From: a virus
Taxonomy: Duplodnaviria > Heunggongvirae > Uroviricota > Caudoviricetes
DNA length: 27,803 nt
IMG/VR virus record: IMGVR_UViG_2531839664_000018
Strand: one strand, 5' to 3'
Shown here: in pieces, positions 8,439-25,841 of the stretch
How the letters are laid out: the number at the start of each line of letters is the position of its first letter
How positions within the stretch are numbered: the first letter of the stretch is position 1
The notes under the pieces: generated by a model
What the model was told of the DNA's origin: nothing
Seen by the model: the letters and a program-made list of their open reading frames with translations, nothing else
Databases searched by the model: none
Made by a program: the position numbers and the translations under genes

Positions 8439-8515
8439 TGGTGCGTTGTACTGGATTCGAACCAGTGACCGATTGCTTAGAAGGCAATTGCTCTGTCCGG
8501 CTGAGCTAACAACGC
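8439..8515 (-). tRNA. tRNA-Arg (anticodon UCU, reads AGA)
   Basis: Hand-folded cloverleaf: acceptor GCGTTGT/ACAACGC, D-stem GCTC/GAGC, anticodon stem ATTGC/GCAAT, loop CTTCTAA, T-arm ACTGG-TTCGAAT-CCAGT, encoded CCA. Confidence 0.85.
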
Positions 8516-8528
8516 AGGGTACGGATAA

Positions 8529-8605
8529 TGGACCGCCATCGAGGACTCGAACCCCGCGCAACCAGCTTCGAAGGCTGGCGCTCTATCCCGATGAGCTAAT
8601 GGCGG
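8529..8605 (-). tRNA. tRNA-Arg (anticodon UCG)
   Basis: Cloverleaf: acceptor CCGCCAT/ATGGCGG, D-stem GCTC/GAGC, anticodon stem CCAGC/GCTGG, loop CTTCGAA, T-loop TTCGAGT, encoded CCA. Confidence 0.8.
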
Positions 8606-8612
8606 TATGTGA

Positions 8613-8688
8613 TGGTGGCCCTTGCTGGATTTGAACCAGCGACCTGGCGATTATGAGTCGCTCGCTCTCACCACTGAGCTAAAGGGCC
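8613..8688 (-). tRNA. tRNA with anticodon CAU, most likely tRNA-Ile2 (lysidine type) rather than Met
   Basis: Cloverleaf: acceptor GGCCCTT/AAGGGCC with G1-C72 paired (not initiator), anticodon loop CTCATAA, T-arm GCTGG-TTCAAAT-CCAGC; resembles E. coli ileX-type tRNA as recalled. Confidence 0.8.
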
Positions 8689-13474: not shown

Positions 13475-13630
13475 TTACTTCTCAGATTCGTAGTCTACGA
13501 AGACAGCGACCTCCGTCTGGCCGGTTCGGATTCGTACCTCGCAGAGGTCTTTCCTCGTTACCAGTGCCGTCACTATGACGGTTAAACAGATGACAATCAG
13601 GGCGATTAACATCGCCTTTTGCTGCTTCAT
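13475..13630 (-). CDS. hok: Hok/Gef-family type I toxin (51 aa)
   Basis: MKQQKAMLIALIVICLTVIVTALVTRKDLCEVRIRTGQTEVAVFVDYESEK with AAGGAG RBS; stable 9-bp stem with GAAA loop (13446-13467) 8 nt after stop. Confidence 0.8.
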   Translation of the reverse strand: MKQQKAMLIALIVICLTVIVTALVTRKDLCEVRIRTGQTEVAVFVDYESEK

Positions 13631-13875
13631 AGCCTGCTTCTCCTTGCCTTTCGGCACGTAAGAGGCTAACCTACATGAGCAAAGCATGAAATTGGCCTCA
13701 GATTAATGTTAAGCGTCTTGCCGGACGCGTAATGTTAACTGGGGCTTTTCTCTGTCTGCCTTACGGTGGCATGCCCGAGGCAGACAGCCTCAAGCACCCG
13801 CAGCAATTCTACTTAACTCTGCCGTTACAGCAAACCGTTTTCGCCCGATATGGGAATTCCCATATCGTAATGAAT

Positions 13876-15199: not shown

Positions 15200-15874
15200 A
15201 TGAATTCCCAGACAAAAAAAGATATTCCCTGCTTCCGTTCTTATTTGCCTGATGCTCTGCGTTTAAGATTTGAAGATAAACTGACCATCCGGGCCATCGC
15301 TCAGCGTCTAGGTCTCAGTCATTCCACAATACATACGCTTTTTCAGCGATTTATTGCATCCGGTATCGCATGGCCATTGCCCGATTCAGTTTCATTAGCT
15401 CAGCTTGATGCCATCCTTTATGCCAACAGAAAGAAGGAATTAACAGAGCCTCAAATCAGCGAAGGCACATGGCGAAAAGAACGGCGAGCCAGCTACAGCC
15501 GTGAATTTAAGGTCCGTCTGGCTAAGCAGGCATTACAGCCCGGTGCTGTTGTTGCCCGGATCGCCAGAGAGCACGGTATCAATGATAACCTGCTGTTTAA
15601 ATGGAAAAGCCAGTACGAGGACGGCTTACTGAGCGATGATGACATACAGGAATGCATGCCTGTCCCGGTGGCTCTGACTGATACGCCAGAGCCGACCAGA
15701 CCAGTTACAAATCCCTTCTGGCGTAACAAGCCTGATGAGTGCCCTGAGAGTGATCCCGGAAACGTCCCACGGTGCGAGCTGCATCTTAAATCAGGTGTGG
15801 TAAAACTGTTTGACCCTCTCACTCCGGAAATGTTACGGGCGCTAATCCGCGAAATGAAAGGAGGTACCCGATGA
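15200..15874 (+). CDS. IS66-family TnpA (accessory HTH protein); start codon uncertain
   Basis: Contains REFKVRLAKQALQPGAVVARIAREHGINDNLLFKWKSQY HTH motif typical of IS66 orf1; ORF-track start at 15143 is GTG, first ATG at 15200. Confidence 0.6.
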   Translation: MNSQTKKDIPCFRSYLPDALRLRFEDKLTIRAIAQRLGLSHSTIHTLFQRFIASGIAWPLPDSVSLAQLDAILYANRKKELTEPQISEGTWRKERRASYSREFKVRLAKQALQPGAVVARIAREHGINDNLLFKWKSQYEDGLLSDDDIQECMPVPVALTDTPEPTRPVTNPFWRNKPDECPESDPGNVPRCELHLKSGVVKLFDPLTPEMLRALIREMKGGTR

Positions 15875-16218
15875 TAACGCTGCCAACCGGTACCAGAATC
15901 TGGATCATCGCTGGCATCACAGATATGCGTTGTGGCTTCAACGGCCTGGCTTCGAAGGTGCAGAACACGCTGAAAGATGACCCGTTCTCCGGGCATATCT
16001 TCGTCTTCCGGGGCCGCAGTGGCAAAATGGTGAAAATACTGTGGGCCGATCGTGACGGGTTATGCCTGTTCGCCAAACGCCTGGAACGGGGCCGCTTCGT
16101 CTGGCCGGTAACCCGGGAAGGGAAAGTGCACCTGACGCCAGCTCAGTTATCCATGCTACTGGAGGGGATCGCGTGGCAACATCCCAAACGGACAGAACGG
16201 CCTGGCATCCGGATATAA
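15871..16218 (+). CDS. IS66-family TnpB
   Basis: 115 aa MITLPTGTRIWIIAGITDMRCGFNGLA...; ATG overlaps tnpA stop (ATGA), GGAGG RBS. Confidence 0.85.
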   Translation: MITLPTGTRIWIIAGITDMRCGFNGLASKVQNTLKDDPFSGHIFVFRGRSGKMVKILWADRDGLCLFAKRLERGRFVWPVTREGKVHLTPAQLSMLLEGIAWQHPKRTERPGIRI

Positions 16219-16237
16219 CCCGTGATAAAACAGGGGA

Positions 16238-17794
16238 ATGAACAACACACTCCCCGACGACATCGAGCAACTGAAGGCCCTGCTGATCGCACAGCAGGCT
16301 GTTATCGTCCGTCTGTCTGGTGAAATAACCGGCTATGCCCGCGAGATCAGCTCACTCAGAGCGCTGGTCGCTAAACTGCAGAGAATGTTGTTCGGTCGCA
16401 GCAGCGAGAAAAGCCGCGAGAAGACAGAAAAGAAGATCGCACGGGCAGAAACGCGTATAACCGAGCTCCAGAACAGGCTTGGTGAGGCGCAGTTGCAACT
16501 CACCTCAATGGCCGGAGAGACAGCGCCGAAAACATCAGACTCTCCCGTCCGCAAAGCACTTCCGGCAACACTTCCCCGTGACAGGCAGGTTATCTCCCCG
16601 GCAGAAACCGAATGCCCCGTCTGCAGCGGCAAACTGAAACCGCTGGGAGAAAGCATCTCTGAACAACTGGATATCATCAACACCGCGTTCAGGGTAATCG
16701 AAACGGTTCGCCCAAAACTGGCCTGCAGCCGGTGCGACTGTATAGTTCAGGCTCCGCAGCCACCAAAACCCATCGAGCGCAGTTACGCCAGTCCGGCTCT
16801 GCTGGCCCGCATAATCATGGCTAAGTTCGCCGAGCATCTGCCGCTGTACCGTCAGTCGGAAATCTATGCCCGCCAGGGCGTGGAGCTGCACCGCAATACG
16901 ATGGGGCGCTGGGTTGACATCATGGGAGAGCAGCTTCGCCCGCTGTATGATGAACTGAAGCACTATGTGCTGATGGCGGGTAAAGTGCATGCCGGTGACA
17001 CGCCGGTAAATGTACTGGAGCCGGGTCAGGGTAAAACCCGTACCGGACGGCTGTGGGTCTATGTTCGTGACGATCGCAACGCCGGTTCGACCATGCCGGC
17101 AGCGGTGTGGTTCTCATACTCTCCCGACCGCAAAGGCATCCACCCACAGCAACATCTGGCGGACTACAGAGGTATCCTGCAGGCCGATGCATATGCGGGT
17201 TACAATGCTCTTTACGAAAGCGGTCAGGTAACCGAAGCGGCTTGTATGGCACATGCCCGACGCAAGATCCACGATGTACATGTCCGCCATCCAACGACAG
17301 TAACGGGAGAAGCGCTCCGTCGTATCGGGGAACTGTACGCTATCGAGGCTGAGATCCGCGGCAGTCCGGCAGAAGAGCGACTGGCGGTCAGAAAAGCCAG
17401 AACGGTACCGCTAATGCAGTCGTTGTATGAGTGGCTCCAGGGGCAGATGAGCACGCTGTCGCGCCACTCGGATACAGCGAAAGCGTTCACCTATCTGCTG
17501 AAGCAATGGGACGCTCTGAACGAATACTGCCGCAATGGCTGGGTGGAGATCGACAATAACCTGTGTGAAAACGCCCTCCGGGTAGTTGCACTGGGGCGGC
17601 GTAACTACATGTTCTTCGGCTCTGATGGTGGAGGCGAGAGTGCGGCAGTGATGTACAGCCTGATCGGTAGCTGCAAACTTAACGGAATCGAGCCGGAAAC
17701 GTGGCTACGCCACGTGATCAGTGTAATCAACACCTGGCCTGCCAACCGCGTGAAAGAGTTGTTGCCCTGGAATGTCACTCAATCTGTAAACTAA
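16238..17794 (+). CDS. IS66-family transposase TnpC
   Basis: 518 aa with N-terminal coiled-coil region, CxxC...CxxC zinc motif and DDE-type core; characteristic IS66 family length. Confidence 0.85.
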
Positions 17795-18989: not shown

Positions 18990-19952
18990 TTACCCCCTGA
19001 AGCCCGGCGGTATTTCAGTGTCCGGTTCAGAAATGTGATTCACGCAACGCTGCGCAGGCGAACGCCCCAGGCGGATAACCAGTTCATCCCATTTTTCCCG
19101 GAGTTTTGCCGGACTCATGATGTTTTTTACCCAGAACGAATCCCGCTGGAGACGCCCAAACATTTCACAAATTTGTCTGTGAGTTCTGCCATCCAGCATC
19201 CGCATTGTGCGAACGTCATTGGCCCATGCTGTCCAGTTGGGTTCTTTCGGTCTAGTGATCTCGCCATCATCGCTGGCCGCCTGCTCGTAAAGACTCACGA
19301 TTCGTCCCCAGATCCACTGTGCGCACACCAAATCTTCCTGACTTCCCCACTGGCGTTTTTTCGCACTGAACACAACCGCGTCAGGGTGTCGGGTTAAAAA
19401 ATCCTGTTCAGCCGTCTGCGGGTCCGGTTGCGAAGCGTCCGGACAAGAAGATCTTTTATCTGACGGATCAGGTTTTAATACTGACGGATCGGGGTCAATC
19501 ATCGCCCCCCTAATCGGCAGTTTTTTATCAACAGTTGATCCATCAAAATTTGACGGGTCAACCGTTGAGGGGTCAATATTTGACGGGTCAACTGTTAACG
19601 GGTCATTTTTTGCCGGGCTAATTTTTCTTTTCGGTTTATATGACTCACGCGCCGCCGCCGCAGCTGCTTCGAGTTTTTCCACATTAAGCCGATAGATATT
19701 GCTTACATTACGCCCACCGACCTTACGCTCTTCCTTCGTCAGCCAGCCCTCTTTCGCCAGTTCTGCAATAGCCGATTTCACTGTGGATTCACTTCTTGCA
19801 CCGATCTGACGCCGGATAGTTTCAATGGCAGGCCATGACACGCCCTCGTCATTGCTGTAGTCTGCAAGACGGGCCATAACCGCCACCCTGGATAAGATCA
19901 TGCCGGTGAAGGCGCACCCTTCCCAGACAAGACCATGAAGCTTGCTGCTCAT
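18990..19952 (-). CDS. Putative phage replication initiator/organiser with N-terminal winged-helix domain
   Basis: N-terminus SWPAIETIRRQIGARSESTVKSAIAELAKEGWL (wHTH), repetitive DPSxxD linker, conserved C-terminal domain; occupies the lambda O position. Start taken at ATG 19952 (GGGGG RBS) rather than ORF-track GTG 19967. Confidence 0.5.
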   Translation of the reverse strand: MSSKLHGLVWEGCAFTGMILSRVAVMARLADYSNDEGVSWPAIETIRRQIGARSESTVKSAIAELAKEGWLTKEERKVGGRNVSNIYRLNVEKLEAAAAAARESYKPKRKISPAKNDPLTVDPSNIDPSTVDPSNFDGSTVDKKLPIRGAMIDPDPSVLKPDPSDKRSSCPDASQPDPQTAEQDFLTRHPDAVVFSAKKRQWGSQEDLVCAQWIWGRIVSLYEQAASDDGEITRPKEPNWTAWANDVRTMRMLDGRTHRQICEMFGRLQRDSFWVKNIMSPAKLREKWDELVIRLGRSPAQRCVNHISEPDTEIPPGFRG

Positions 19953-19974
19953 AAAACCCCCGAACACCGTGCTT

Positions 19975-20400
19975 TTAGTGCATCACCACAGCATTCCCTG
20001 CCGGGCCGCCGCGATTCATCTGGTCATACAAAACAACCGCTGACGCAACAAAATCATCGACATCCTTCACCAGCCGCTCCCTCCGTTCGACGATCTCACG
20101 GTAATATTCAGAACTGTGGCTGCGCATACGGGCCACCAGCAAAGGCGGCATCGCCTTTTCGATCGCCGGTAACAGAGCCTGCATTTTTTCAACAGCATCA
20201 GGGGTGTCTTTATCCAGCCAACGGAAAATTTTCTGGGTATTACGGGCCAGGGCTTCCGGATGGCTGTCGTCATACAGTTCCGGGAACGTCATTCCCAGCT
20301 CGAAATACGCTTTGGTAATTTTCGCAGCCGGTACTTTTTCGCCGTCCGGATGCGCCCAGACATTCATCGCCATGCGGATGTGTTCATGCTTGATTTTCAT
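19975..20400 (-). CDS. YdaT-like protein in the cII position
   Basis: 141 aa starting MKIKHEHI...; start overlaps the cro-like stop (ATGA); family assignment from recall of Rac ydaS-ydaT organisation. Confidence 0.45.
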   Translation of the reverse strand: MKIKHEHIRMAMNVWAHPDGEKVPAAKITKAYFELGMTFPELYDDSHPEALARNTQKIFRWLDKDTPDAVEKMQALLPAIEKAMPPLLVARMRSHSSEYYREIVERRERLVKDVDDFVASAVVLYDQMNRGGPAGNAVVMH

Positions 20401-20699
20401 GAATCAACTCCATCAGATAAGCATGCACTACAATCACCTTCAGCATGAACTACATGTGTTTGCCCCAAACGAATGCCGCTCGCATACTCAGGCCAAATAA
20501 GCTCCCAATCATGAGGTCGTAGCTCCGCCCTACTTACTTGGCCTTCCGTCGCAGATTCGATCATAAGGGCGCGGGTTGGAGATATAGCTGTTCGTCCAGA
20601 CGCCATTTGCGATAAGTAAGATGGCGATACACCAAGTCTGGCCGCGAATTTCTTAGCATCACCAACCCTTAATGATTTAATAAACTCTTTTAATGTCAT
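20397..20699 (-). CDS. Cro/YdaS-like HTH regulator, first gene of the early operon
   Basis: 100 aa; HTH-like segment AKKFAARLGVSPSYLSQMASGRTAISPTRAL; strong RBS GAGGAAGG; divergent from the repressor-like gene. Confidence 0.6.
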   Translation of the reverse strand: MTLKEFIKSLRVGDAKKFAARLGVSPSYLSQMASGRTAISPTRALMIESATEGQVSRAELRPHDWELIWPEYASGIRLGQTHVVHAEGDCSACLSDGVDS

Positions 20700-20796
20700 A
20701 CCTTCCTCGGTTTAGTGTTTTTTTGCGAGTTTAGTGTTTAATAAACCATTGAGTCAAGTATTTGCTTGTTTAGTGATTACTAAAGATAATTACCAC
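20700..20796. promoter_or_regulatory. Divergent immunity-region promoter/operator interval with three direct repeats GTTTAGTG(T/A)T
   Basis: Repeats at 20710-20719, 20729-20738 and 20768-20777 in the 97-bp gap between divergent cro-like and repressor-like genes. Confidence 0.4.
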
Positions 20797-21168
20797 ATGC
20801 AAAAAAAAGAAATTCGCCGTTTACGTCTCAAGGAGTGGTTTAAAGATAAAACTCTGCCACCCAAAGAGAAGAGCTACCTATCTCAACTAATGAGTGGGAG
20901 AGCCTCGTTTGGAGAAAAGGCTGCCAGAAGAATAGAGCAAACATACGGGATGCCGGAAGGGTATCTGGATGCGGAATACGCAGAACAACCGGGGGTTTCT
21001 CCACCACATGCAGGGTTAACGTCTAATCAACTGGAATTATTGCAGATTTTTTCAGCCTTCCCTGAGGATGAGCAACGCCAGATAATCAGCGAGTTAAAGC
21101 AGAAAAAAGAATCAATGGAAGATCTCATAGCGAGATGGATTGCGGCGCAAAAATGCCGCCGCGCCTGA
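20797..21168 (+). CDS. Phage repressor-like HTH regulator (PaaR-like; DicA-like C-terminal region)
   Basis: 123 aa from ATG 20797; C-terminal LELLQIFSAFPEDEQRQIISELK resembles DicA-type repressor C-termini; first gene of a three-gene plus-strand operon. Confidence 0.6.
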   Translation: MQKKEIRRLRLKEWFKDKTLPPKEKSYLSQLMSGRASFGEKAARRIEQTYGMPEGYLDAEYAEQPGVSPPHAGLTSNQLELLQIFSAFPEDEQRQIISELKQKKESMEDLIARWIAAQKCRRA

Positions 21169-21188
21169 GTTATAAAACCGGAGGAAAC

Positions 21189-21380
21189 ATGAATAGAGCC
21201 CTTTCACCAATGGTTTCTGAATTTGAAACCATTGAACAAGAAAACAGTTACAACGAATGGCTGCGTGCGAAAGTAGCAACGAGCCTTGCAGATCCGCGCC
21301 CAGCAATTCCCCATGACGAAGTTGAGCGCAGAATGGCAGAACGCTTTGCTAAGATGCGCAAGGAACGGAGCAAGCAGTAA
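21189..21380 (+). CDS. Small antitoxin (PaaA-like) partnered with ParE-family toxin
   Basis: 63 aa MNRALSPMVSEFETIEQENSYNEWLRAKVATSLADPRPAIPHDEVERRMAERFAKMRKERSKQ; GGAGG RBS; stop 1 nt before toxin ATG. Confidence 0.6.
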   Translation: MNRALSPMVSEFETIEQENSYNEWLRAKVATSLADPRPAIPHDEVERRMAERFAKMRKERSKQ

Positions 21381-21381
21381 A

Positions 21382-21660
21382 ATGTTACCCGTGTTATGGC
21401 TTGAAAGCGCAGATACCGACCTAGATGATATAACTAGTTATATTGCTCGTTTCGACATAGATGCGGCTGAACGCTTATGGCAGCGATTAAGGGGTTGTGT
21501 GCTGCCGTTATCCGAACATCCGTATTTATACCCACCAAGCGACAGAGTACCTGGCTTGCGTGAGATTGTAGCCCACCCTAACTATATAATTCTATACCGC
21601 GTAACAACATCAAGCGTTGAAGTAGTAAACGTGATCCACGCAAGACGCCAGTTTCCCTAA
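21382..21660 (+). CDS. parE: ParE/RelE-superfamily toxin
   Basis: 92 aa MLPVLWLESADTDLDDITSYIARFDIDAAERLWQRLRGCVLPLSEHPYLYPPSDRVPGLREIVAHPNYIILYRVTTSSVEVVNVIHARRQFP: ParE-type motif pattern. Confidence 0.75.
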   Translation: MLPVLWLESADTDLDDITSYIARFDIDAAERLWQRLRGCVLPLSEHPYLYPPSDRVPGLREIVAHPNYIILYRVTTSSVEVVNVIHARRQFP

Positions 21661-21678
21661 CTTTCACTACCAATAGAA

Positions 21679-21745
21679 ACATAACAACCGCAACGACTTT
21701 ATCAAAAGCGTTGTGTTTGTTATGTCCCGCGGTTTAGTTTTTACT
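21679..21745 (+). terminator. Imperfect stem-loop plus T-rich tract downstream of the toxin gene (possible operon terminator)
   Basis: 17-nt arms ACATAACAACCGCAACG / CGTTGTGTTTGTTATGT (15 of 17 complementary) then GGTTTAGTTTTTAC, which also contains a fourth GTTTAGT motif. Confidence 0.35.
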
Positions 21746-22090
21746 TGACTTAAGTTTAATGTTTATTAAACTAAAAATACCAACCCACCCCGCCCCACAG
21801 AACGCAGGGAAATACTTCGAGTTACCCGGCAGTGGTCAGGGGTTAAGTAGCCAGCCCGAGGCGTATGAACATGACGGCAGGGTTCAACTTTAATAACTAT
21901 GCAGCAGGTTTTTGTTCCGCTACCCCGGCGTTAAGGGGAAACAGAGGGTTTCTCAGTGGGCGAAGTCAAACATCAGAATGGAAGGCATCCCGGGATCGGC
22001 AAAGAAGCAGCAATGGCGCTTTATATTGACATCAGCGCCATTGCAGGACAGGTAAGAGTTATCAGAGCGGTAACTAAGCGGTATGCGCCT

Positions 22091-22291
22091 TTACTTCAGA
22101 AAGTCTCTGGTGAGTGCACCGAAGATATTGTCAACGATTTCGTCATCGAACTGCGAGGACTCATCTTCAGTTACAAGGTGACCACAATTTTTGCAGATGG
22201 CTCCCGCGAAACTGTCAGAGCCCTGCGGCTTAAAGGATGTGTCAAAGACTTCGCCACCACATTCTGGGCAAGAAAACTTGATTGTATTCAT
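22091..22291 (-). CDS. Small zinc-ribbon protein (66 aa) on the strand opposite to the flanking operon
   Basis: MNTIKFSCPECGGEVFDTSFKPQGSDSFAGAICKNCGHLVTEDESSQFDDEIVDNIFGALTRDFLK; paired CxxC motifs 18 residues apart; GAGAGGAAA RBS. Preferred over the overlapping plus-strand 118-aa ORF. Confidence 0.45.
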   Translation of the reverse strand: MNTIKFSCPECGGEVFDTSFKPQGSDSFAGAICKNCGHLVTEDESSQFDDEIVDNIFGALTRDFLK

Positions 22292-23024
22292 AACCAATTT
22301 CCTCTCGAGTAACAGCCCCCTCAGAGGATACCACCTCGCCTGACGTGGTTAAAAGCAGGCTGAAAATCTGTCCGCTCTGGAGCAGGATATCACCAGGCTG
22401 GAAAAAGCAGCGGCATTAAGCATTGCCAGAATGATTACATACCCGCGTTAATAGCTAACCAACGAAGCTAAGGTTGGTAATTAAGGAGTTCTCCACGGGT
22501 GAGGTGGAGTGCGTGCGCCGGACACGGGTGAGCATACGGCACTGACAGTTTACTGAAAGGATATTTCCCTGAAAAGTCAGACCATAACGCGAAAGCGCAC
22601 GGCGAGGTAGCTGGTTCATAGATAGCCTGTCGTTAAATTTTCGTCGACCGTGCGCTTCCGGTTGTGGCAATCCGCGAAATGGCGCGGCGGTAAGTATGGA
22701 GGGGTTATTCCTTCCCCCGTTGAGGACACCGGGTTGTCAGGTTGACCATACGCTTAAGTGACAACCCCGCTGCAACGCCCTCTGTTATCAATTTTCTGGT
22801 GACGTTTGGCGGTATCAGTTTTACTCCGTGACTGGTCTGCCGCCCTTTTTAAAGTGAGTTTTGTGATGCGGTGAATGCGGCTGAGCGCACGCGGAACAGT
22901 TAAAACCAAAAACAGTGTTATGGGTGGGTTCTCTGTATCCGGCGTTAATTGTTAACTGGTTAACGTCACCTGGAGGCACCAGGCACCGCATCAACAAAGT
23001 TCATTTGTAAAAATGGAGATAATT

Positions 23025-23246
23025 ATGATTGCTCATCACTTCGGAACTGATGAGATTCCTCGTCAGTGCGTGACTCCCGGTGATTATGTTATTCATAAAG
23101 GAAGAACATATATTGCTTCGGTAAACAACATTAAAAAACAACGGCTCTATATTCGTGATTTTTCCACACAACACTGTATTAAGGAAACCATGATTAAAGT
23201 CTTCCTTGGTCGTGATGGTTTACCTGTAAAAGCAGAGTCATGGTGA
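23025..23246 (+). CDS. Kil-like small protein (KilR-family, putative host cell-division inhibitor)
   Basis: 73 aa from ATG 23025 (GGAG RBS): [46 protein letters not shown]...[14 protein letters not shown]; size and position upstream of the exonuclease match Rac kilR as recalled. Confidence 0.5.
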
Positions 23247-23369
23247 GCAGTAATAAAATAACTGCCACAATACGACATTCAGCTTAATGAATACATCAGA
23301 TTTGATTCTTATATGCCAGCAATGGCAGGGATTTGTTCATCCTTAAATCTGTCATGAGGTTAAAACAAA

Positions 23370-25841
23370 ATGAGTAAAGTCTTTATTTGCGCCGCCATTC
23401 CGGACGAACAGGCAATAAAGGAAGAAGGTGCAGTTGCTGTAGCCACTGCCATTGAAGCCGGTGACGAACGCCGCGCCCGTGCCAAATTTACCTGGCAATT
23501 CCTGGAGCAATATCCGGCTGCTCAGGACTGCGCTTATAAATTTCTTATCTGCGAGGATAAACCCGGCATGCCCCGCCCTGCTATCGACTCCTGGGATACC
23601 GAATATATGCAGGAAAACCGCTGGGATGAGGAATCCGCTTCCTTTATTCCGGTCGAACCAGAATCCGAACCGATGAACGTCAATTTTGACAAACTGTCCC
23701 TTGAAGTACAGAACGCTGTCATGGTTAAGTTCGACACATGTGAAAACATCACCGTTGATATGGTGATTAGCGCGCAGGAATTGTTGCAGGAAGACATGGC
23801 AACATTCGACGGACATATCGTTGAAGCGTTGATGAAAATGCCAGAAGTTAACGCCATGTATCCGGAGCTTAAGCTGCATGCCATCGGGTGGGTTAAGCAT
23901 AAATGTAAGCCTGGTGCCAAATGGCCCGAAATTCAGGCAGAGATGCGCATCTGGAAAAAACGTCGCGAAGGTGAACGCAAGGAAACCGGAAAATACACGT
24001 CTGTTGTTGATCTCGCCCGCGCCAGAGCCAATCAACAGAACACTGAAAATTCAACAGGAAAAATCAGCCCGGTCATTGCTGCCACTCATCGCGAATACAA
24101 GCAGACATGGAAAACACTGGATGACGAACTGGCCTACGCTCTCTGGCCTGGTGATGTGGATGCCGGAAACATTGACGGCAGCATCCATCGCTGGGCAAAA
24201 AAAGAAGTTATCGACAACGACCGCGAAGACTGGAAGCGTATCTCGGCATCAATGCGCAAACAGCCTGATGCCCTTCGCTACGACCGCCAGACTATTTTTG
24301 GCCTTGTCCGTGAACGTCCGATCGACATTCACAAAGATCCTGTGGCACTGAACAAATACATTACTGAATACCTGACTACAAAGGGCGTGTTTGAAGATGA
24401 AGGAAGAAATCAGAGCGCAACTGATACTCTCTCGTCGCCAGTACCAGAAACTGATGCAGTGGAAACGGCAATTCCGGACAACGAAAAAACCGAATGCAAA
24501 GTGGAAGTCGAACCATCTGTAGAGCGTGAAGGGCCGTTCTACTTCCTCTTCACCGACAAGGATAGCGAAAAATACGGTCGCGCAAACAAACTTTCTGGTC
24601 TGGATAAGGCACTGGCTGCAGGGGCTACTGAAATCACGAAAGAAGAATATTTCGCCCGAAAAAATGGCACATACACAGGCTTACCGCAAAATGCAAATAC
24701 CGCACAAAATTCTGAACAACCAGAACCGGTAAAAGTTACCGCTGACGAAGTAAAGAAAATTATGCAGGCAGCCAATATCAGCCAGCCTGACGCCAATCAG
24801 TTGCTCGCCGCATCACGTGGTGAATTTGTTGCAGGGATTAGCGACCCGAATGATCCGAAATGGGTGAAGGGGATTGAAACCCGCGATTCTGTGAACCAGA
24901 ACCAGCAAGAAACGGAACAGAACGACCAGAAAGCGGAACAAAACAGCCCAAATACGCAACAAAACGAGCCAGAAACGAAACTACCTGAACCAGTAGTGCA
25001 ACAGGAAGTGGAAAAAGTCTGCACCGCCTGCGGTCAGACCGGCGGCGGCAACTGCCCTGATTGTGGCGCGGTGATGGGCGACGCTACATACCAGGAAACA
25101 TTCGATGAAGAGTATCAGGTTGAAGTTCAGGAAGATGATCCGGAGGAAATGGAAGGCGCTGAACATCCACACAAGGAGAACACTGGCGGCAATCAGCATC
25201 ACGATAGCGATAATGAAACTGGCGAGACGGCAGATCACCCAATTAAGGTGAACGGTCATCAAGAAATCACATCCACCAGCAGGACGTGTGACCATCTAAT
25301 GATCGACCTTGAAACCATGGGAAAAAATCCTGATGCCCCGATCATCTCAATAGGTGCAATATTTTTCGATCCGCAAACCGGAGATATGGGACCGGAATTT
25401 AGTAAGACTATCGATCTGGAAACTGCTGGCGGAGTCATTGATCGGGACACCATTAAATGGTGGCTTAAGCAATCACGCGAAGCGCAATCTGCCATTATGA
25501 CCGATGAAATCCCGTTAGATGATGCACTGTTACAATTGCGGGAATTTATCGACGAAAACTCCGGTGAATTTTTTGTTCAGGTCTGGGGAAATGGAGCCAA
25601 CTTCGACAACACGATTTTGCGCCGTTCATACGAACGGCAGGGGATCCCCTGCCCGTGGCGTTACTACAACGATCGCGATGTACGCACAATCGTTGAGCTG
25701 GGGAAAGCCATAGACTTCGATGCCAGAACGGCTATTCCATTCGAAGGTGAGCGCCATAATGCACTTGATGACGCCCGTTACCAGGCAAAATACGTTTCAG
25801 TTATCTGGCAAAAACTGATCCCGAGTCAGGCTGATTTTTAA
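23370..25841 (+). CDS. Large prophage exonuclease (823 aa) with C-terminal DEDDh (DnaQ-like) 3'-5' exonuclease domain
   Basis: C-terminal motifs MIDLETMG (Exo I), WGNGANFD (Exo II), HNALDDARYQ (Exo III); central Q/E-rich low-complexity region and zinc ribbon CTACGQTGGGNCPDCGA; segment LLAASRGEFVAGISDPNDPKWVKGIETRD recalls RecE-like proteins. Confidence 0.8.
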   Translation: MSKVFICAAIPDEQAIKEEGAVAVATAIEAGDERRARAKFTWQFLEQYPAAQDCAYKFLICEDKPGMPRPAIDSWDTEYMQENRWDEESASFIPVEPESEPMNVNFDKLSLEVQNAVMVKFDTCENITVDMVISAQELLQEDMATFDGHIVEALMKMPEVNAMYPELKLHAIGWVKHKCKPGAKWPEIQAEMRIWKKRREGERKETGKYTSVVDLARARANQQNTENSTGKISPVIAATHREYKQTWKTLDDELAYALWPGDVDAGNIDGSIHRWAKKEVIDNDREDWKRISASMRKQPDALRYDRQTIFGLVRERPIDIHKDPVALNKYITEYLTTKGVFEDEGRNQSATDTLSSPVPETDAVETAIPDNEKTECKVEVEPSVEREGPFYFLFTDKDSEKYGRANKLSGLDKALAAGATEITKEEYFARKNGTYTGLPQNANTAQNSEQPEPVKVTADEVKKIMQAANISQPDANQLLAASRGEFVAGISDPNDPKWVKGIETRDSVNQNQQETEQNDQKAEQNSPNTQQNEPETKLPEPVVQQEVEKVCTACGQTGGGNCPDCGAVMGDATYQETFDEEYQVEVQEDDPEEMEGAEHPHKENTGGNQHHDSDNETGETADHPIKVNGHQEITSTSRTCDHLMIDLETMGKNPDAPIISIGAIFFDPQTGDMGPEFSKTIDLETAGGVIDRDTIKWWLKQSREAQSAIMTDEIPLDDALLQLREFIDENSGEFFVQVWGNGANFDNTILRRSYERQGIPCPWRYYNDRDVRTIVELGKAIDFDARTAIPFEGERHNALDDARYQAKYVSVIWQKLIPSQADF

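Follow-up and report, generated by a model that had tools for sequence, protein, structure and literature searches.

When the genes in the place of lambda cI and rexAB look like a toxin-antitoxin operon, the question is whether the first of them is the immunity repressor of the phage, a private regulator of the toxin, or both. Such a locus lies at positions 20797-21660 of the window analyzed here, a 27,803-nucleotide stretch of viral DNA (IMG/VR record IMGVR_UViG_2531839664_000018). It is the published paaR2-paaA2-parE2 operon ("RAE2") of Escherichia coli lambdoid prophages, situated in the immunity region. We are highly confident of this identification, together with a CI-like role of PaaR2 and a toxin-antitoxin pair riding on the PaaR2 transcript. 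The feature is already known in detail: the operon, the structures, the regulatory circuit and the cI-rexAB equivalence have all been published, and the same locus in prophage CP-933P was described by Jurenas et al. 2021 (PMC8630535) as a bistable, heritable switch in which PaaR2 opposes YdaS.

The immunity region carries the paaR2-paaA2-parE2 operon

Three open reading frames (ORFs), each starting with ATG, follow one another on the plus strand. The first, paaR2 (20797-21168, ending in TGA), encodes a CI-analogue repressor of 123 amino acids (aa); the second, paaA2 (21189-21380, TAA), a 63-aa antitoxin without a DNA-binding domain; and the third, parE2 (21382-21660, TAA), a 92-aa ParE-family toxin. 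The gap between paaR2 and paaA2 is 20 nt long (21169-21188) and holds a GGAGG motif at 21180-21184, with no promoter-like site found there in the promoter scan, and a single nucleotide (21381) separates the paaA2 stop from the parE2 start. On the other side, the cro-like gene ydaS is divergent from paaR2 across a 97-bp spacer (20700-20796). The first-pass annotation had reported three same-strand ORFs with gaps of 20 and 1 nt facing a divergent cro-like gene, and both the ORF listing and direct reading reproduce this layout exactly. These are genuine genes, not ORFs that arose by chance: the two smaller products, of 63 and 92 aa, match solved chains at 100% identity and pass the Pfam thresholds, and the 123-aa product is identical over residues 1-66 to the solved PaaR2 domain.

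PaaA2 is 100% identical to the protein in PDB entries 3ZBE, 5CW7 and 5CZE, and its only family match is Pfam PaaA2 (PF21217; 70.7 bits against a cut-off of 27, 1e-19); in matching genomes RefSeq labels the gene "RelB family antitoxin". ParE2 is 100% identical to chain B of 5CW7 over residues 1-92 and matches Pfam ParE_toxin (60.9 bits against a cut-off of 23, 1.9e-16), with weaker matches to other solved ParE toxins such as 3KXE; the proposed ParE membership of the 92-aa protein is thereby confirmed. The suggested comparison of the three proteins with PaaR2, PaaA2 and ParE2 returned solved-structure sequences at 100% identity, for PaaR2 over residues 1-66. The family assignment, worded in the first-pass annotation as PaaR-PaaA-ParE-like, was right and indeed too cautious, since the type proteins are identical or differ by one residue. 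A ParE-family toxin, a PaaA-family antitoxin and a leading helix-turn-helix (HTH) gene of the paaR kind all occur here and point to membership in the PaaR-PaaA-ParE three-component systems. The proposed cI-rexAB slot is also borne out, as paaA2-parE2 are stated to replace rexA/rexB, and PaaR2 to replace CI (PMC9986795).

PaaR2 is CI-like in function and lies outside the S24 repressor family

Residues 1-66 of PaaR2 are identical to the PaaR2 N-terminal domain in PDB entries 7NKV, 8C3K and 8C3L, whose deposit title reads "Phage repressor protein CI". Over its full length, 122 of the 123 residues are shared with the O157:H7 protein, the single change being V67G in the linker. The protein belongs to PHROG 5736 ("transcriptional regulator", 2.3e-39), and residues 71-119 match the C-terminus of DicA (NCBIfam DicA model, E 1.1e-6; 28.5 bits against a cut-off of 101), giving a two-domain architecture of an N-terminal HTH and a short DicA-like C-terminal domain. 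No Pfam family matched the protein, and its HTH was recognized only through the PDB, PHROG and NCBIfam-DicA matches. In matching genomes, RefSeq labels this characterized repressor "hypothetical protein".

Whether the first gene is the immunity repressor is beyond the reach of sequence alone; the answer comes from experiments on CP-933P PaaR2 (PMC8630535, PMC9986795). PaaR2 binds the 97-bp intergenic region, as seen by electrophoretic mobility shift assay and a 78-bp DNase I footprint, represses the promoters PRM, PR and PL, and at low dose activates PRM (PMC8630535). Transcription of paaR2 from PRM starts at its own ATG, so that the messenger is leaderless like that of cI, and the protein begins with MQKKE (PMC8630535). 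PaaR2 is therefore CI-like in function but stands outside the S24 repressor family of the lambda CI/LexA type; that it lacks the S24 self-cleavage domain of CI is also stated in PMC8630535.

PaaR2 might instead be a dedicated toxin-antitoxin regulator, that is, the DNA-binding half of a split antitoxin, with the cro-like neighbor incidental. PaaR2 was first described as the operon regulator, PaaA2 lacks a DNA-binding domain (Pfam PaaA2 being all it matches), and the idea was raised by the authors of PMC8630535 themselves. However, PaaR2 represses PR and PL, which drive other genes (PMC8630535), and operator repeats flank the operon on both sides. Relatives speak against the idea as well. Klebsiella phage 5 LV-2017 encodes a full-length PaaR2 homologue (45% identity) in the same position, opposite in direction to homologues of YdaS and YdaT; downstream there is no toxin-antitoxin pair, the gene that follows being the same zinc-ribbon gene as the one past PL in the window. 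In Burkholderia phage vB_E177, the PaaR2 DNA-binding domain (65% identity, 58 aa) is fused to Peptidase_S24 (56.8 bits) in a gene divergent from a YdaS-type gene; this fusion argues that the N-terminal domain of PaaR2 is a genuine phage-repressor DNA-binding domain, and the C-terminal part of PaaR2, as noted, resembles DicA. We consider it extremely improbable that PaaR2 is only the regulatory half of an antitoxin, and retain it as a CI-like repressor.

A further relative separates the two domains the other way. In E. coli RM8082, a paaA-parE pair at 90.7% DNA identity lies downstream of a gene for a 132-aa regulator that has only the C-terminal domain in common with PaaR2 (49% identity, residues 63-123) and carries a different HTH. 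The comparisons support a view of PaaR proteins as putative modular, S24-less, DicA-type immunity repressors.

Operators and promoters surround the operon on both sides

The 97-bp rightward operator region (OR, 20700-20796) holds the divergent promoters PR and PRM and repeated operators, which the repeat finder grouped as direct-repeat family D1. In CP-933P, an OR of the same length contains four 18-bp repeats at equal spacing, with GTTTAGTAA as their half-site (PMC8630535). The repeats noticed earlier in 20700-20796 are real: the exact word GTTTAGTG occurs three times in the 27.8-kb window (0.81 expected), always in OR, at 20710, 20729 and 20768 (spanning 20710-20775). The first copy belongs to an 18-bp operator repeat at 20710-20727 that shows the GTTTAGTGT half-site only and would correspond to IR4. 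The second lies in the palindromic 18-bp operator GTTTAGTGTTTAATAAAC at 20729-20746 (half-sites 20729-20737 on the plus strand and 20738-20746 on the minus strand), which overlaps the PR -10 hexamer and would be IR3. The third lies in the palindromic 18-bp operator GTTTAGTGATTACTAAAG at 20768-20785 (half-sites 20768-20776, plus, and 20777-20785, minus), which overlaps PRM and would be IR1. Repeats were assigned to the published IR and OL names by position and spacing only.

The promoter scan placed a PR-type promoter, TTGACT-18-TAAACT, at 20757 to 20728 on the minus strand, where it would drive ydaS-ydaT; this prediction is consistent with PR933P as mapped by 5' RACE (PMC8630535). PRM was not called by the scan because its -35 element (TTGCTT) is weak. 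We infer that the PRM -10 element is the GATAAT at 20785-20790 (plus strand), whose last base lies 7 nt ahead of the A of the paaR2 ATG; a Shine-Dalgarno sequence is absent, and the layout fits a leaderless paaR2 mRNA.

On the far side of the operon, 85 nt past the parE2 stop, the scan found a PL-type promoter, TTGACT-16-TAAACT (21745-21772, plus strand). PL and PR have identical -35 and -10 hexamers in the window, as also reported for PL933P beyond parE2, which PaaR2 and YdaS repress about 100-fold (PMC8630535). The PL/OL region (21732-21772) contains the leftward operator (OL) repeat GTTTAGTTT at 21732 and the palindrome GTTTAATGTTTATTAAAC at 21754-21771; repeat families D1 and D2 tie OR to these copies at 21732 and 21754. 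The GTTTAGT-type repeats, at 20710, 20729 and 20768 and again at 21732 and 21754, overlap the promoter hexamers.

Beyond the spacer, on the minus strand, ydaS (20397-20699) encodes a 100-aa HTH protein, the Cro analogue. It matches Pfam YdaS_toxin (3.3e-12), HTH_3 and, weakly, P22_Cro, carries the PHROG label transcriptional repressor, and is the RefSeq protein WP_000172738.1, found unchanged in O157:H7. YdaS binds the 97-bp spacer (65-bp DNase I footprint) and represses PRM, PR and PL (PMC8630535). The next gene, ydaT (19975-20400, minus strand), encodes a 141-aa CII-analogue activator that matches Pfam YdaT_toxin (1.8e-10) and PHROG 163 ("CII-like transcriptional activator", 3e-47). YdaT activates a PRE-like promoter (PMC8630535), and its site TTGATTN6AATCAA was footprinted at the end of ydaS (Prolic-Kalinsek et al. 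2023, PMC9986795). This motif has a single match in the window, without mismatches, at 20390-20407: the high-affinity YdaT operator OM, TTGATTTTCATGAATCAA, spans the ydaS stop and the ydaT start. RefSeq names the ydaT product "toxin YdaT family protein", whereas in published experiments YdaT was non-toxic and acted as a transcription factor. An O-like gene, encoding a replication-initiator-like HTH protein, follows beyond ydaT (18990-19967, minus strand), and to the right of the operon stand the PL-like promoter, DicF, kil, exo, xis and int. The features expected of a lambdoid immunity repressor gene are thus present, at least as predicted: paaR2 stands with PR on one side and PL on the other, the divergent cro-type gene is followed by cII-type and replication genes, and there are two operator sets.

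Convergent to PL lies a 68-aa zinc-ribbon gene (22091-22297, minus strand; CxxC...CxxC, NCBIfam ECs_2282_CxxC family), an unusual position for the lambdoid left operon in that the gene faces into PL. It is fully overlapped by a 118-aa plus-strand ORF (21956-22312), which is the frame annotated in the record of Escherichia phage Evi. As the first gene of the PL operon this plus-strand ORF was rejected, since it is the antisense zinc-ribbon frame that is conserved in the comparison with the Klebsiella phage (E 4e-11 against 0.12).

The toxin-antitoxin pair as a probable accessory cassette

For proteins identical to these, ParE2 toxicity, its neutralization by PaaA2 and post-segregational killing have been reported (summarized in PMC8630535). 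PaaA2 is labile and is degraded by ClpXP and ClpAP, and the ydaST-RAE2 region stabilizes an unstable plasmid through post-segregational killing (PMC8630535). Experimental support exists for one role of the pair only, addiction of the immunity region; the purpose of the pair is less certain than its identification.

The position in the rexAB slot and co-transcription with the repressor invite another reading, in which paaA2-parE2, besides or instead of acting in addiction, serve the lysogen as a RexAB-like abortive-infection or exclusion module, fired when an infecting phage halts host transcription and PaaA2 decays. Degradation of PaaA2 by the two proteases would suit such a trigger, and more than one repressor allele accompanies the cassette, which is common for accessory genes. 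On the other hand, none of the three operon proteins matched a PADLOC defence model at E <= 0.01, no defence phenotype is reported in the literature found on the module, and the only phenotype shown is post-segregational killing (PMC8630535). We regard a RexAB-like function as unlikely, and addiction remains the role to which we hold.

Gene order among relatives makes it likely that the pair, situated between the repressor gene and PL, is an accessory cassette. In RM8082 the module (3073-3974 of the stretch compared) is heteroimmune: the divergent ydaS and ydaT are other alleles, and intact ydfB, ydfC and dicB come after it. Across 19000-23500 of the window, the composition profile showed no discontinuity in GC content or skew that would mark the pair as a recent insertion, so the accessory-cassette idea rests on comparative gene order only.

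The operon was detected at >= 80% coverage in 595 of 5426 complete E. coli genomes (about 11%), 579 of them at >= 99% identity; carriers include O157:H7, O26, O111 and ATCC 25922. In the phage database, the only nucleotide match was Evi (98.3% over 1404 bp), a temperate coliphage cultured from infant faecal samples (PMC6969025, PMC10910852) with full head, tail and lysis modules. Its three ORFs are intact, with ParE2 identical, PaaA2 carrying K55R and PaaR2 two linker changes; the module is therefore not confined to dead prophages. Because the pair is intact in Evi, stands behind a heteroimmune PaaR allele in RM8082 and is absent from the equivalent region of the Klebsiella phage, it is conceivable, though doubtful, that paaA2-parE2 form a mobile accessory cassette of live temperate phages, acting either in Rex-like exclusion or as an "immunity-region addiction" device that kills immunity-swap recombinants.

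Between the parE2 stop and PL lies a hairpin (21679-21725, plus strand), an inverted repeat with 22-nt arms that are 82% complementary; the RNA fold reaches -24 kcal/mol (z -4.68), with 0 of 200 shuffles as good. The promoter/terminator scan did not call it as an intrinsic terminator because its stem has no T-run immediately behind it; a U-rich stretch begins about 7 nt past the stem, overlapping the first OL repeat. Phage Evi shows two non-compensated changes at the base of the stem, and the word "terminator" was not found in PMC8630535. We infer only that the hairpin is possibly a terminator or stabilizer of the RAE2 transcript.

Proposed circuit

PaaR2 would be made from a leaderless PRM transcript and bind the GTTTAGT-type operators both within the 97-bp OR and, about 1 kb away, in OL, repressing PR (and with it ydaS-ydaT and the early rightward genes) as well as PL, while a low dose would stimulate its own promoter. 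The Cro-like YdaS would compete for the PaaR2 sites, and the CII-like YdaT would bind TTGATTN6AATCAA at the ydaS/ydaT junction and switch on a PRE-like promoter, the expected outcome being a bistable, heritable switch. These steps, like the properties of ParE2 and PaaA2 and the killing, were shown in CP-933P with the same proteins and are matched in the window by sequence. The paaA2-parE2 pair would be carried on the repressor transcript; PaaA2 has no DNA-binding domain, which would leave transcriptional control to the phage repressor. ParE2 is expected to act as a nucleoid-associated, SOS-inducing toxin, so that loss of the locus would free it and kill the cell. Further, the pair was presumably inserted between the repressor gene and PL as an accessory cassette, may make the immunity region or the whole prophage addictive, and PaaR2 octamers may loop OR to OL.

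Several points weigh against this assignment. No S24 peptidase was matched by Pfam in the 123-aa PaaR2. The published work used the cryptic prophage CP-933P and plasmid reporters and stops short of superinfection immunity or lysogeny maintenance (PMC8630535), and ParE2 activity was detected in neither switch state (PMC8630535). Finally, position 20751, which adjoins the PR -35 hexamer within the degenerate second repeat, is G here and A in both O157:H7 strain 4276 and phage Evi.

Prophage and host context

Over 24.9 kb, the 27.8-kb window matches chromosomes of Shiga-toxin E. coli O121:H19 strains at 100% identity, and in these it forms part of a lambdoid prophage with an intact integrase adjoining potC/potD; the O157:H7 copy used for comparison adjoins ynfA/ynfB and has a frameshifted integrase. 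Judged by these comparisons, the prophage of the window is distinct from CP-933P of O157:H7. The immunity region (2401 bp) differs from its O157:H7 counterpart by only 4 single-nucleotide polymorphisms (SNPs): at 20077 in ydaT, at 20514 in ydaS (silent), at 20751 in OR, next to the PR -35, and at 20996 (PaaR2 V67G, in the interdomain linker).

The prophage carries three insertion sequence (IS) elements: an IS3-family transposase ORF with an rve domain (156-974), an IS3-family element with an ALIL frameshift pseudoknot at 3791-3905 (3506-4719), and an IS66 element (tnpA, tnpB, tnpC; 15200-17794) that splits an early gene. Left of the lysis genes, the matching O121 genome holds nothing but IS remnants, suggesting that the prophage is defective and lacks morphogenesis genes. 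With these elements, the truncated ydfC and dicB and a TerB pseudogene in view, the module could be thought a silent relic of an IS-rich O121 prophage. Yet all five immunity genes are intact in the window and are identical or nearly so to functional copies across serotypes (the 579 genomes at >= 99%; 4 SNPs in 2.4 kb), the promoters and operators are likewise intact, and an addictive toxin-antitoxin pair resists loss. A silent relic is thus very unlikely, and we retain the reading of a probably working immunity switch with its passenger pair.

Downstream of PL lies a homologue of the DicF small RNA (22794-22845, plus strand; Rfam 74.2 bits against a gathering score of 48), flanked by the truncated ydfC (~22353-22451) and the truncated dicB (~22915-22998) and followed by an intact kil (23025-23246). 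Given this location, DicF would be under PaaR2/YdaS control through PL.

Other regulatory RNAs and genes were seen elsewhere in the prophage. AgvB, an anti-GcvB small RNA (7415-7476, plus strand; 96.5 bits), and STnc100 (7477-7666, minus strand; 148 bits) lie back to back, as prophage-borne regulatory RNAs, between the region of the TerB pseudogene and a SASA esterase gene. Three transfer RNA (tRNA) genes (8439-8688, minus strand) are located between a DNA methyltransferase gene and the lysis region: Arg-TCT, Arg-TCG and one with a CAT anticodon, which ARAGORN assigns to Met and RefSeq to Ile. The prophage has a second addiction-type module, a hok/sok type I toxin-antitoxin locus (13475-13799, minus strand; Rfam sok match of 114 bits), where the identical O121 record places a Hok/Gef family gene.

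Significance and comparison with known systems

As a finding, the operon adds little, being a real but ordinary module. Its practical value lies in annotation, since published experiments argue against the toxin label of ydaT and paaR2 is under-described in RefSeq. The immunity cassette is shared by different prophage backbones and by one phage that can be cultured, Evi, in which real immunity and the role of the pair could be put to the test.

The closest known system is that of CP-933P (O157:H7 EDL933) and Sp12 (Sakai). PaaA2, ParE2 and YdaS are identical, PaaR2 is one linker residue off, and the 97-bp OR, the PR/PL hexamers, the operator repeats and the YdaT site are the same as in the window. 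The host, the prophage backbone and the flanking replication and dicB-region genes differ, as does one OR position (the SNP at 20751).

As in lambda, the repressor gene, with a probably leaderless messenger, and a cro-type gene diverge, repeated operators lie to either side, a CII-type activator is present, and two accessory genes are co-transcribed downstream of the repressor gene. In contrast to CI, PaaR2 has no detectable sequence similarity to that repressor and no S24 self-cleavage domain. The lambda OR contains three repeats, whereas four 18-bp repeats are reported for the PaaR2 system (PMC8630535); OR and OL lie about 1 kb apart in the window, and the accessory genes are a ParE-type toxin-antitoxin pair instead of RexAB.

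DicA of the Qin prophage of K-12 likewise occupies the cI position as a short repressor (~130 aa) that lacks S24. PaaR2 residues 71-119 match its C-terminus, a tblastn search with PaaR2 finds dicA genes at 27% identity, and the ydfC', DicF and dicB' downstream of PL in the window are Qin-like. The N-terminal DNA-binding domains differ, however, and the PaaR2 score falls far below the cut-off of the DicA model. Qin is not known to have a toxin-antitoxin pair between dicA and its leftward operon.

Finally, canonical two-gene parDE systems share with this operon a ParE-fold toxin, a small labile antitoxin and post-segregational killing. Unlike them, the present system has an antitoxin, PaaA2, that lacks a DNA-binding domain and does not autoregulate alone, and leaves regulation to a third gene, whose product is at the same time the phage repressor (PMC8630535).

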